Below, piece after piece: positions 5,306 through 21,663 of a stretch of 64,000 nt of DNA. The stretch is from Escherichia phage ALITA, in sequence record PP359570. One strand, given 5' to 3'. The stretch's first letter is position 1. The number at the start of each line of letters is the position of its first letter. The translations under genes were made by a program, and so were the position numbers. The notes below the pieces were generated by a model. The model had not been told where the DNA came from. It was given only the letters and a program-made list of their open reading frames with translations, and ran no database searches.

Positions 5306-5327
5306 TTCGTGTTTTTATAGGTGTGTT

Positions 5328-5439
5328 AATGAGAATCATTTTCGTTTGTAAATGAGAATCATTATCATTTAACTATGTAAGTGATAATCATTCTCAGTAA
5401 GAGAATGAGAATCATTAGCAAATGAGAATTTTTCTCATT
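5328..5439. promoter_or_regulatory. array of five Fur-box-like operators (AATGAGAATCATT)
   Basis: 13-mers at 5328, 5351, 5380, 5404 and the perfect palindrome AATGAGAA-TTT-TTCTCATT at 5421-5439; the 19-mer ending at 5364 matches GATAATGATAATCATTATC at 16/19. Confidence 0.5.
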
Positions 5440-5674
5440 TACAGAATAACGCGCAGGGGCGGTGTTTGTCTCGCGCTCCCGTGTCCCCTCGCCATACAAT
5501 AAGAATAGCATAACCAATAACAAAAGCAAGCGATTATTTTTATCTTTACATTTCTTTACAAATTTATTTTAGACGAGCTACCGGCGATCAACCTTCCAAC
5601 CAGTGCCCCCTGGTATGTTAGCCCCGCCTTTACGCCGTGGGGTGGCGTTTCCTCTTCTGTATGTAAAACAGTAT

Positions 5675-5693
5675 AAGCCCGATCCCTGGGCTT
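5675..5693 (-). terminator. intrinsic terminator AAGCCC-N7-GGGCTT
   Basis: Hairpin 7 nt after stop of 5701..5967 on minus strand, followed by atactgtttt. Confidence 0.5.
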
Positions 5694-5700
5694 GTCAAGA

Positions 5701-5967
5701 TTATTTTTTGTTTTCTTGCCAGGATAGGACACCTAACCAAAAATACATGTCGCCCCGCGCCCCTGGTGGGATCTTGCTTTCCCCGCCGCCACTGCAAGCC
5801 CATAAATAACCATCAGCGAACGGATCAAAGTGATCTATCTCTTCCACCTTATGATCGCCCAGGTTGAGAACGGTTTCAACCTTTAAGCCCGTTGCGCTTG
5901 CTACCTGGTGCACCGTGCCGCCTTGCCAGCCCAGTGAGTGCATGAGATGTAAAGAAGTATTTGTCAT
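5701..5967 (-). CDS. hypothetical protein (only minus-strand gene of the island)
   Basis: 88-aa ORF with its own promoter/hairpin/purine leader upstream and a terminator downstream. Confidence 0.6.
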   Translation of the reverse strand: MTNTSLHLMHSLGWQGGTVHQVASATGLKVETVLNLGDHKVEEIDHFDPFADGYLWACSGGGESKIPPGARGDMYFWLGVLSWQENKK

Positions 5968-6043: not shown

Positions 6044-6077
6044 GCAAAAAAGAAATGAAAAAAAGATTAAAAAATGG

Positions 6078-15942: not shown

Positions 15943-15958
15943 ATAACATTTCACACCA

Positions 15959-15985
15959 GGGCGCACAAAGCGCCCTTTCTTTTTA
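15959..15985 (+). terminator. intrinsic terminator GGGCGC-ACAAA-GCGCCC + T-run (end of island)
   Basis: Perfect stem plus tttcttttt. Confidence 0.7.
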
Positions 15986-16189
15986 CCTAAATAAAGATGA
16001 TAGCTTTTACCTATCAAAAACGTTCACCGAAAAAAGTGAATAGATCGCGGTATCGAACTAATCAAGCAACAGATGAACAACCATACCATGAAGGTCATAA
16101 GGCGCTTACAACGTGTTTTAGACCGCTTATTTTTAATTTCTTCATGTAACTATCTGGCAAAAACAGCCTTTTTCTTGTCTTTCCTCTTA

Positions 16190-16260
16190 AATGATAATCA
16201 TTCTTATTTATAGCTGATTATTTATGCAATTTATTGCATAATGCAATAATGATAATCATT
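16190..16260. promoter_or_regulatory. two exact Fur-core 13-mers AATGATAATCATT flanking a triple ATGCAAT/ATTGCAT palindrome
   Basis: 13-mers at 16190-16202 and 16248-16260; ATGCAAT-TT-ATTGCAT-A-ATGCAAT at 16224-16247. Confidence 0.5.
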
Positions 16261-16640
16261 CCTAACTTAAGACCATCTAACCTATAAAATAATAAGTTAT
16301 CTAACTAAATTAAAACTAATTATCTCACTTTTATTTATAACTTACTGTTACTATCTCATTGATAACCTTATATTAAACAACAATAACTAATATAAATCAT
16401 TACTAAGCTAAATATAATCTATCTAACCCTTAAAACTACAATTATAATCTATCTAATTGTTGCACAAAGTAACTATTAAATTGTTAGTAACATTACTAAA
16501 TAATTCACATCCTATCTATTTATGATCTAATCTTTACCTTTCTATCTATTACCTAAATAACCATTTCATACAGTAATTATTCCATATGGTAATCATTTCA
16601 TACAATAATTATAACAAGAAATATAATTCGCAAGCGTATC

Positions 16641-16816
16641 ATTAGCAGCCTATGCCGGACACATAGGCGGCTAATAATAACGCAACTACACACCCCACAT
16701 AATAACCATCAACGATGGTTATTATTTGTGTTTATGTAGCTTGCAACAATTGCAAGCGCAACAATATACATGGTATATTGTATTCCCTTACATTGTTGCG
16801 GTGCGTTATTATTAGC
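16641..16816. repeat. nested perfect palindromes / cruciform-capable element
   Basis: Outer arms GCTAATAATAACGCA (16670) / TGCGTTATTATTAGC (16802) enclose hairpins at 16699-16725 (12 bp), 16739-16757 (8 bp) and 16762-16780 (8 bp); a further hairpin lies at 16642-16673. Confidence 0.6.
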
Positions 16817-17119
16817 TAATGTTTAGAACATTGGCTATAATATAAGCTGCATATAATAAACTATGCAATAATAAACATGGTGAATAATGACACCGATGAT
16901 CATAATGCGCCACCCTCCAGGGGGCGCTATGTAAACACAAAGAAATCTTTCTTGTCAAGAAAATATTGCCACTATTGCGCAAAATTATTTTTATCTGAAT
17001 AGATGATTTTTCATACTATTGCCCCTATAACATACCTCATTTGTTGAGCCTACTTTCTTAAAAGCGCAATAAATCAGAATTATCTTGATTTTTAGGGCGT
17101 TTTATAGTACAGAAAGTAT

Positions 17120-17138
17120 GCAAATGATAATCATTATC
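17120..17138. promoter_or_regulatory. Fur-box-like site (17/19 to GATAATGATAATCATTATC)
   Basis: gcaAATGATAATCATTATC read directly from the sequence. Confidence 0.5.
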
Positions 17139-17305
17139 AGCTATCTTCCACGGGTAGCACTATTTCACGCCAGATCATTTCATTTGGCAAGGTGTATATA
17201 GATGTTTAGACTTGCCAAGCCATTGATTTACTTAGAATTTATCTGTTTTGTTGTGAGTAATACCTTTCTTACTCAGAAAATAATCAAAAGTCTTATAAGT
17301 CATTG

Positions 17306-17336
17306 AATGATAATACAAATGATAATTATTCTCATT
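17306..17336. promoter_or_regulatory. tandem Fur-hexamer-like repeats
   Basis: AATGATAATacaAATGATAATTATTCTCATT. Confidence 0.4.
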
Positions 17337-17695
17337 GATATTTGAGGGGGACGGTCGGCAGAAATCGGGGGGCGCTGAAAATCGCGTTAAGCACCTCTCG
17401 CAAGCGAGCAGTATTTTGCGGCAAGTTATTGATATTATTGACTTTACGCTTATGAAAAGGGGGTGTGTCGAAATAAATCGGGTATACCGGAAAATTTTTG
17501 TGGCATAGATATTTATTTGTCTATATTATGTACAAAGGGGTGTATTAAAAATAATAGGTATATATAGAATAATTGATAGGGAAATCCTATACTAATCCCT
17601 CCATTAATGATGTTTCTATGTTGCTGTTATTGTAATAGATGAAAAGACGCTGTATGATGTGTGGCATGAAACGTAAACTTATAAAGGAGTCTGAT

Positions 17696-18065
17696 ATGTG
17701 TGTCCCTCTTAGCAGTCCACTGCTGTTAGAATTTTACAAAGCATGGATGGAAGATCATTCCTCAATGCATCGTGAGAATGTTGGTTTGTGTATTTGCCTT
17801 ATGGATTATCTGGCAACCACTATGTCAAAGAAAAAAAAAACCTACGCAAGAAGATATAGAACATTTCAAGATGGTTCGTAGTAAAACGCTGGAAGAGATG
17901 AAATTGCAATTCACGTGTGCTGGGCTATCCTCCTTCCTGCCCTTTAATGATGACCTTCTGTGTTATGAAGATGAAGGTAAGAAACATTCTTGCCATACTA
18001 ACCCAGAGAGATTGCAGTGGGTGAAAGATCGTATCGAAGATGCAAATAATGTTTGCATTGGATAG
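17696..18065 (+). pseudogene. frameshifted member of paralog family A (split at A10 run 17831-17840)
   Basis: ORFs 17639..17881 and 17772..18065 together align with the full length of paralogs 19847..20215 and 20839..21423; removing one A restores the frame; AAGGAG RBS before ATG 17696. Confidence 0.6.
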
Positions 18066-19328: not shown

Positions 19329-19541
19329 ATGTGTAATGGCAGATACATTCTTCGTGTATCTGATAAGTCTCCTATGTTTGACTGGCGGGGCTGGTGGCTA
19401 CTAGCTCCGATGCAAGGTCTGACAGACGTGGAAAAGGAGGCTTATGTGTATACAAAAGAAGAGATAGAAGATAGTCTTTATTTGACAGATAACATTAAGA
19501 ATGGTATCTTTGAGTGTAAATTGAAAGGAGAGGAAGAATGA
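19329..19541 (+). CDS. hypothetical protein
   Basis: 70-aa ORF; weak RBS but tightly packed. Confidence 0.5.
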   Translation: MCNGRYILRVSDKSPMFDWRGWWLLAPMQGLTDVEKEAYVYTKEEIEDSLYLTDNIKNGIFECKLKGEEE

Positions 19542-19846: not shown

Positions 19847-20215
19847 ATGCAAGAGAATAGTAAAGTGTGTAACATGAAAAGCAGCCCCTATTTGCTACAA
19901 TTTTATGAGTGGTGGTTAGAACAAGAAGATACAAACTTTAGCAAAAAGCATTATGGTCTTTGCACGTGTCTTGTAGACTTCTTATACAATATTGCTTTGA
20001 TAAAAGATGTTGAGAATGTAGCAAAGCTCCAATCCTCTGTACGAGAGGAAATGAAGGAACAATTTAAGAAAGCGGGTTTGAACCATTTACATCCGTTTAA
20101 TACGGATTTCTCGCACTACTTTACGGAAACAGAACTAGGCATTGCACACCTTAATAAAGAACGTGTACAATGGGTGATTGATCGTATTCGTGATATGGAG
20201 GAATACAATGGTTAA
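19847..20215 (+). CDS. paralog family A protein
   Basis: SPYLLQFYEWW, GLCTCL, LHPFN, ERVQWVIDRI motifs shared with 17696.. and 20839.. Confidence 0.7.
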   Translation: MQENSKVCNMKSSPYLLQFYEWWLEQEDTNFSKKHYGLCTCLVDFLYNIALIKDVENVAKLQSSVREEMKEQFKKAGLNHLHPFNTDFSHYFTETELGIAHLNKERVQWVIDRIRDMEEYNG

Positions 20216-20838: not shown

Positions 20839-21423
20839 ATGAGTAAAATTATACCAAGCAGTTATGAATTATTGCAGTTTTATGTATATTATATAGACTG
20901 GGTTAATAGATCGAATGTTAAAGACAATGCGATGTTTAGTAAAAACATCTGTTTAACAGAAAGTATCTTCCGTTACTGGCACACAGGTAGAAAGTGTACA
21001 CACAGTGAAGCTATGCGCATTGTAGGTGAATACCTGGAGCAATTGCAAAAAGCAGAGCTACCTGTCCTTCACCCATTCAATGAATCTAAAGAAGAATTAG
21101 AACAAGAGTGTAGAGAAGGTAAGTGCCATTTGAATGAAAAACGTATCGAATGGGTGAGGCAACGTTTAGCCGATGCAGGAAAGACTCCTAGTGACTCTGA
21201 CTATACGTGGTATGATGTAGAGGGTTTAGTTCAAGGTTTTGAGGCTTGTGCTATAGATAATACAAACTTTGCCAAAGTTTTATGCGAGGCTTATGACCTG
21301 GCAGATAAAATCCGAAATCACGGATGGAAACAAGAGCATAAAGAATCATATGAACGCCTTGACAAGATTTTCAAACAGATCTATTCTAACCACAAGAAGA
21401 TGTTCCAAATGGAGGATGTGTAA
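20839..21423 (+). CDS. paralog family A protein (long form)
   Basis: ELLQFYVYY..., LHPFN, KRIEWVRQRL; AAGGAGAGG RBS. Confidence 0.7.
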   Translation: MSKIIPSSYELLQFYVYYIDWVNRSNVKDNAMFSKNICLTESIFRYWHTGRKCTHSEAMRIVGEYLEQLQKAELPVLHPFNESKEELEQECREGKCHLNEKRIEWVRQRLADAGKTPSDSDYTWYDVEGLVQGFEACAIDNTNFAKVLCEAYDLADKIRNHGWKQEHKESYERLDKIFKQIYSNHKKMFQMEDV

Positions 21424-21495
21424 TGAAAGAGATTATTTTGAAGGGCATCGTTACGAAGTTCCAGAATACTGTCTTTGGATAAAACGGGAGGAATA

Positions 21496-21663
21496 ATGCA
21501 AACATTTTTTATCGACAAGTTCAATAAAAGTATGAACACGTGGATGGCAACATTCACTATGCAATTTGCGTCATTTAAAGAAGCTCAAGAATGGTGCGAT
21601 CAACACAAGGATTTTGATTTTTACTATCAAGTTAATGCAAACCTTTCTCCAGAGGAGAAATAA
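21496..21663 (+). CDS. hypothetical protein (55 aa)
   Basis: GGGAGGAATA then ATG (MQTFFIDKF). Confidence 0.55.
   Translation: MQTFFIDKFNKSMNTWMATFTMQFASFKEAQEWCDQHKDFDFYYQVNANLSPEEK

Follow-up and report, generated by a model that had tools for sequence, protein, structure and literature searches.

In the stretch of DNA analysed here, hereafter the window (64,000 nt of Escherichia phage ALITA, sequence record PP359570), the reading frame of a small early gene breaks off at a run of ten adenines (A10). This raises the question of whether the run is a device that makes two proteins from one gene, a switch that turns the gene on and off, the mark of a gene that has recently been lost or simply a place where one base was called too many. 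The window belongs to Justusliebigvirus, the phi92-like E. coli myoviruses of the Stephanstirmvirinae, and phages Paula, Eryne and AV123 are ~97-98% identical to it.

The split gene and its family

The A10 run lies exactly at positions 17831-17840, as the first-pass annotation of the sequence had placed it, between AAAG on its 5′ side and CCTACG on its 3′ side. In the frame of the start codon (the zero frame) the codons read ACT ATG TCA AAG AAA AAA AAA ACC TAC and continue, through GGT TCG, to the stop codon TAG at 17879-17881, which falls 13 codons past the A-run and gives the protein the tail ...SKKKKTYARRYRTFQDGS*. The start is ATG 17696, which is the one annotated for the orthologue in most relatives, and a Shine-Dalgarno sequence, AAGGAG, read from the sequence at 17684-17689 on the + strand, stands 6 nt 5′ of it. 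On the same grounds ATG 17639 was rejected as the start, so that of the ORF first reported as 17639..17881 the end holds but the start does not, and the tail given for it (...TYARR*) had been cut short. The zero-frame ORF (17696..17881, + strand) translates into 61 residues, comprising 47 native residues that correspond to predicted helices 1-2, an extra Lys and 13 out-of-frame residues (TYARRYRTFQDGS) before the TAG, and this product is without helices 3-5 and without the EM..QF, PFN and R..WV..R motifs.

The ORF in the +1 frame, KKKPTQEDIEHFK...LPFN...ERLQWVKDRI, does continue to 18065, as had been noticed. Its part beyond the run (17841..18065, + strand; PTQEDIEHFK...WVKDRIEDANNVCIG*) is open to the native stop and accounts for predicted helices 3-5 as well as the majority of the conserved motifs. 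Taking away one A yields a protein of 122 residues that is 97% identical to intact database proteins, which bears out the earlier statement that loss of one A restores a full-length protein. The claimed collinearity with two paralogues farther along the window is borne out as well, since the joined protein aligns with them end to end, at 41% identity (19847-20215) and 30% identity (20839-21423), and shares with them the motifs LLxFY, CL, PFN and RxxWVxxR. The loss of one base or the gain of two restores the frame, whether this happens in the DNA or in the RNA, and so does a ribosomal shift of +1, whereas a -1 ribosomal shift leads into the wrong frame. The peptides that distinguish the products are the trans-frame SKKKKPTQEDIEHFK or SKKKKKPTQEDIEHFK on the one hand and the zero-frame tail TYARRYRTFQDGS on the other. 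Separate translation of the downstream part from GTG 17772 was considered and rejected, there being no ribosome-binding site and the first 19 codons being out of the native frame.

The repaired protein matches the PHROG 2510 family (E = 1.1e-22), as does the intact 122-aa paralogue at 19847..20215 (+ strand; E = 1e-25), which was identified from the ORF list, by alignment and by its profile match. The second intact paralogue, at 20839..21423 (+ strand), is more distant, has 194 aa with a C-terminal extension and belongs to PHROG 27059, PHROG 2510 also being matched. PHROG 2510 has no annotated function, and no Pfam family was found for the gene or for 73 family members. A search with the PHROG 2510 profile gave 806 cluster representatives at E ≤ 0.001. 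Members of the family include proteins with two or three tandem domains, and its invariant or near-invariant positions are the Cys in the GLC motif, PFN, an Asn (N111) and R..WV. An AlphaFold2 model of an orthologue (P0001; mean pLDDT 93.5) has five helices, with the KKK that corresponds to the run in the loop between helices 2 and 3, a region of variable length among paralogues. No convincing match to this model was found among solved structures in the PDB.

Near the frameshifted gene no Rfam family or tRNA was found, and a promoter and terminator scan gave no signal above shuffled expectation there. A separate observation concerns two clusters of Fur-box-like sites, one at 16190-17330 in the 1.75-kb ORF-poor region (15943-17695) directly 5′ of the frameshifted gene and the other at 5325-5419 in a second intergenic region. 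The E. coli Fur-box consensus is GATAATGATAATCATTATC. The 19-mer, at up to three mismatches, has 6 matches at 5 sites (0.04 expected), with 17 of 19 positions matched at the best of them (17120-17138), and AATGATAATNATT occurs 5 times where shuffles give 0.04. These sites suggest that early genes may be under iron- and Fur-dependent control, or that the phage may titrate Fur.

The run and the gene among related phages

The first-pass annotation had proposed that the length of the tract be checked in relatives, and the site was compared in 38 loci including the window, the other 37 coming from phages in GenBank, from assemblies in ENA and Logan and from a single JGI/ENA metagenome contig. Six bases (AAAAAA or AAAAAG, both Lys-Lys) and an intact gene of 111-125 codons are found at 36 of them. 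A10 occurs in the window alone, four bases above A6, and the alignment of AV123 with the window at this locus is base for base except for a 4-base gap within the A-run. The one other departure is phage ECGD1 (locus L028), with A7 and a truncated annotated CDS. Since OZ035773 (locus L049) has A6 and is identical to ECGD1 in the other 635 bases of the 636-base locus, this A7 would be either very recent or an error. A7 and A10 are in the same wrong frame and both are OFF, and long in-frame alleles (A9 or A12) are absent from the 38 loci, as are the intermediate lengths A8 and A9 from every relative. The 13-residue zero-frame tail has its only counterpart in the frameshifted ECGD1 copy and none in the intact genes of relatives. 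A different kind of truncation was seen in phage 92CQ (locus L023), where gene 1 is shortened at its 3′ end to 111 codons.

The search was also carried beyond these loci. Exact-product look-ups with the three local ORFs and the next gene in a public assembly index returned no match from an independent assembly, and the flank followed by at least seven A's was not found in a metagenome scan. A gapped pattern scan of metagenomes brought up one relative, with six bases at the site, and the same type of pattern was not found in IMG/VR or in bacterial genomes. Matches to CACTATGTCAAAGAAAAAA in IMG/VR were rejected as unrelated chance matches. Both the long run and the division of the gene into two frames thus lack conservation, and this is what speaks most strongly against evolved recoding and against an evolved phase-variable locus.

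Apart from the run, the gene in the window is undamaged. It has no other stop or indel, and over codons 1-112 the A6-equivalent protein matches that of the nearest relative in every residue, with no amino-acid change specific to the window. Against the nearest relative the copy counts 4.5 synonymous and 1.5 non-synonymous differences, and of its substitutions only those at 18052 and 18061, both in the last six codons, occur in no other of the DNA loci compared. The lack of any other lesion indicates that the break is recent. The pristine state of the rest of the gene fits a very recent event, which is also what an error in the sequence would predict.

The gene stands in an array of PHROG 2510 paralogues that varies from 0 to 3 copies among phages otherwise 95-98% identical. 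One copy (423 bp) is present in AV123, Antha, UAB_1 and others, two copies (793 bp) in inny, Paula, outra and others, and three ORFs (932 bp) in Nernie, ESCO8, Eryne and others, while phi92, PHB05, VEcB and others, together with locus L032, retain only a 54-nt remnant of gene 2; at locus L038 gene 2 stands alone and at locus L042 the array position is empty. Given this range of copy number the gene is dispensable in nature, and in the window the two further intact paralogues (19847-20215 and 20839-21423) remain. Where it is kept, the gene is under purifying selection, with a pooled pN/pS of 0.17 in 14 relatives. To judge from the two-copy locus of phage inny and from single-copy relatives, the single copy in the window is a deletion chimera of two tandem paralogues, in which array gene 1 (GATCGTAT) gives way at 18027..18040 (+ strand) to the tail that gene 2 has at its 3′ end (CGAAGATGCAAATAAT), the crossover lying in WVKDRI near 18034/18035. 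The crossover point differs slightly between AV123 and the window, which suggests that unequal recombination in the array has been repeated. Elsewhere in this region, at ~21458-21465, the window has ~1.2 kb less than Paula, the missing part being homologues of Phi92_gp011 to gp013. The junction lies directly after the paralogue 20839-21423, with short remnant ORFs beyond it, and AV123 has a similar gap.

Composition alone does not make an A10 improbable, as dinucleotide-preserving shuffles of the window yield ~3 A10/T10 runs. The real window is strongly depleted in long A/T runs, with 276 runs of five, 82 of six, four of seven, none of eight or nine and one of ten, and AV123 (49 kb) and Paula (47 kb) are depleted in the same way. 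The run at 17831-17840 is the longest in the 64-kb window and its sole homopolymer of at least eight bases. The one exception to the depletion in these two phages is an intergenic A10 in phage Paula (locus L019, 7535-7544), where the window (6046-6051) and AV123 have A6; net growth from A6 to A10 has therefore happened at least twice in the clade, once at a presumably neutral site. That the A-run coincides with the frame break is not chance, because relatives have the gene whole and the two frames meet precisely in the run.

As a check on the assembly, ATG-initiated ORFs of at least 70 codons from AV123 (104 ORFs) and Paula (99 ORFs) were aligned to the window. Of those aligned over at least 95% of their length, ~90 from AV123 and ~80 from Paula, the A10 gene is the only real one that is disrupted. 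The other flags were rejected: one arises where an alignment ends, one is a single stop in an antisense ORF of 261 nt, one belongs to an alignment of 79.7% identity, and the one at 5556-5803 falls in an ORF that spans a promoter region and is no gene, the real gene beside it (5701-5967) being intact. The window thus shows no sign of systematic homopolymer error, and the check says little about runs of eight bases or more since the window contains only one. A difference of a related kind was noticed in AV123, which has GGG (locus L018, ~21644-21646) where the window (19388-19391) and Paula have GGGG. The AV123 homologue of window gene 19329-19541 is annotated as a CDS of 132 nt, against 213 nt in Paula, and this is either another homopolymer frameshift in an early accessory gene of the clade or an error.

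Origin of the frameshift and competing explanations

The explanation that we consider probable is a recent, lineage-specific slippage frameshift in a dispensable accessory early gene, and not a programmed decoding device. Ancestrally the site would have been an A6 for Lys-Lys, placed in a variable loop on the surface of a small PHROG 2510 protein with five helices, and slippage of the replication polymerase would have extended it to A10, a net gain of four bases that was probably stepwise and passed through out-of-frame lengths, so that the gene may already have been out of frame as the run grew. The 61-residue product now made from ATG 17696, having lost helices 3-5 and most of the conserved motifs, is presumably inactive. 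What is usually asked of a pseudogene is largely found here, namely an indel in a repeat relative to intact orthologues, an early stop with loss of domains, and dispensability, whereas further degenerative changes are absent. Two points stand against such an event, one being that a net +4 is unusual for a single slip and that A8 and A9 intermediates are lacking in relatives, and the other that a knockout should carry a cost in nature given the purifying selection on the gene in relatives, a cost that laboratory propagation may remove.

The run would still allow some rescue. A10 is long enough that a degree of slippage by RNA polymerase and frequent A10-to-A9 reversion during replication may be expected, and a small share of the protein would then be full-length and a small share of the genomes revertant, as a by-product and not as an evolved mechanism. 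In the light of published slippage data, the full-length protein is expected to amount probably to a few percent or less. Such rescue would be weak and incidental because the frame needs -1 or +2 nt, which is not the commonest slip of E. coli RNA polymerase (+1). With reporters, insertion slippage by this polymerase was detectable only from A8, and there was no deletion on the poly(A) runs tested (PMC6260861), while in the E. coli transcriptome most insertions in runs add one base and runs seldom lose bases (PMC5574713). Ribosomes slide robustly on A11 but only slightly on A9/A10 (PMC4363877). Rescue at A10 could nevertheless exceed the assumed level, since the A11 run of Citrobacter rodentium tssM1 gives rise to mRNAs with 10 to 15 A's (PMC4256274).

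An error in the consensus would dispose of the frameshift altogether. The DNA would then truly carry A9, the gene would be intact with one extra in-frame Lys in the variable loop, and the tenth A would have come from miscalling the homopolymer or from a majority vote among heterogeneous reads. Homopolymers of 9-10 bases are a classic site of miscalls, and the product with one base fewer is a complete protein, with KKKK instead of KKK in a loop whose length varies among paralogues. The purifying selection in relatives and the pristine downstream frame also count for this possibility, as does the A7 of ECGD1 beside the A6 of OZ035773, an instance of single-base discrepancies between database entries at the same site. 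We nonetheless hold an error to be unlikely. It leaves the +4 relative to every relative unexplained, of which at least +3 must be real; the ~90 ORFs shared with AV123 and the ~80 shared with Paula read through in the window; and there is no frameshift at its 86 A/T runs of 6-7 bases, which speaks against an unpolished long-read assembly. The earlier suggestion of a sequencing error is tenable if it means that a real A9 was read as A10, and fails as an account of the whole difference of four bases.

Somewhat less likely again is that the run is a new hypermutable ON/OFF switch, or a leaky allele, that is kept because it is useful, following the logic of a 'savior indel'. The gene would be harmful on some hosts and useful on others, an OFF allele of A10 would often regenerate ON alleles (A9 or A12), and slippage at the RNA level would supply a low dose of the protein. 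Phages reportedly do use hypermutable homopolymers. The length of the run, far above other run lengths tolerated in the genome, falls within the slippage range documented in enterobacteria (PMC4256274), and slippage on runs of nine A or T has been reviewed (PMC5009743). As A7 and A10 share the wrong frame, growth from one to the other would raise leakiness and leave the frame unchanged. Against this, 36 of the 38 loci have a short, stable tract, several of them interrupted as AAAAAG, and mutability has not evolved at this site in the clade. Among close relatives the lengths are A6 or A5G (ON) and A7 or A10 (OFF), which is not the ON/OFF length polymorphism of a contingency locus, the long in-frame variant (A9 or A12) having been observed in none. 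The commonest slip in RNA (+1) leaves the frame unrestored (PMC5574713), and the like growth from A6 to A10 at a neutral intergenic site in Paula makes selection unnecessary. The option of a phase-variable gene, raised in the first-pass annotation, thus holds no further than for any A10, which trivially mutates more readily than an A6, and there is no sign of an evolved contingency locus. It is more doubtful still that a useful leaky or hypermutable allele is newly born here, with a +1 knockout first and growth of the run in the same wrong frame then favoured. If this were true, a contingency locus would have been caught at its origin in a virulent coliphage, one that hedges between hosts on which the accessory protein helps and hosts on which it harms.

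Evolved programmed recoding, in which transcriptional slippage or a +1 ribosomal shift on AAA-AAA-AAA-A makes two proteins in a fixed ratio, is in our judgement very improbable. The layout has some of its features, in that on AAA-A a tRNA-Lys shifted one base downstream pairs perfectly again, with CCT as the next codon in the restoring frame, and in that two ORFs meet at a run of at least nine A/T. Run length and ORF layout also resemble those of tssM1 in C. rodentium (PMC4256274). Neither the site nor the split layout is conserved among the 38 loci, however, a -1 shift, which would call for an X XXY YYZ heptamer and a downstream structure, enters the wrong frame, and neither stimulator of a +1 shift is seen, as there is no SD-like element upstream of the A-run and ACC, the next codon in the zero frame, is a common one at which no ribosome stall is expected. 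The 13-residue zero-frame tail is without a counterpart in the relatives' intact genes, and the truncated product amounts to two of the five helices. Comparison with relatives has largely refuted programmed recoding.

The idea that two protein forms are made on purpose finds no support, as the run and the two-ORF layout are not conserved, the shift needed is not the favoured one (PMC6260861; PMC5574713) and no frameshift stimulator is visible. The alternative of a freshly dead gene, offered in the same place, is the best fit, with a lineage-specific +4 over the A6/A5G of 36 relatives in a gene that is dispensable and otherwise pristine. The ORFs 17696-17881 and 17772-18065 are best annotated as one frameshifted gene, with a remark on the homopolymer, in place of two hypothetical proteins. 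The locus also illustrates how early accessory genes turn over in phi92-like phages, both by unequal recombination in tandem paralogue arrays and by slippage at A-runs in Lys codons. If the tract proves heterogeneous in reads, it would offer a natural system in which to measure homopolymer mutation and transcriptional slippage during infection.

Comparison with known systems

Several systems in which a slippery sequence joins or separates two reading frames resemble the locus to different degrees. In the tail assembly chaperones of phages (the lambda G/GT type), a -1 shift on a heptamer, in an arrangement conserved across tailed phages, yields two proteins of structural assembly. The likeness is that two overlapping ORFs of a tailed phage are joined at a slippery sequence; here, by contrast, an early accessory gene would need a shift of +1, at a site that is not conserved. 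Campylobacter phages are said to carry polyG tracts in receptor-binding genes that are conserved across the phage group and variable within populations. In both cases a homopolymer lies inside a phage gene and its slippage could toggle the gene ON and OFF, but here there is one polyA case, in one genome, in an early gene without an assigned function.

The G7 allele of the herpes simplex virus thymidine kinase, a 'savior indel', is also a viral gene lowered by a homopolymer indel with trace expression through slippage, but that allele, unlike the one here, is explained by a known selective agent, the antiviral drug (PMC5009743). The A11 run of C. rodentium tssM1 is closer in its machinery, as an enterobacterial RNA polymerase meets a run of 10-11 A's before the premature stop of a split gene and non-templated A's make a full-length protein possible (PMC4256274). 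The function of tssM1 depends on both products and on their ratio, and its layout recurs in Yersinia (PMC4256274), whereas the ALITA gene is dispensable and 36 relatives lack the run; moreover, the frame here needs -1 or +2 nt, for which one added A is insufficient. The resemblance to tssM1 frameshifting and to the polyG switches of Campylobacter phages is superficial, and the locus fails the test of conservation that defines the evolved systems.

The ALITA case works like the poly(A) frameshift pseudogenes of Buchnera and Blochmannia (PMC5009743; PMC5574713), in which a gene intact in relatives is likewise broken at an A-run made by slippage, the downstream frame is likewise open and transcriptional slippage could likewise yield some full-length product. 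The two settings differ in that long A-runs are common throughout the endosymbiont genomes as a result of AT bias, whereas this is the single run of at least eight bases in 64 kb, and in that the host polymerase here is that of E. coli. Traverse and Ochman reported no case of restoration in their data (PMC5574713). Nothing found at the ALITA locus suggests a new mechanism, and the frameshift is an event of a known kind.
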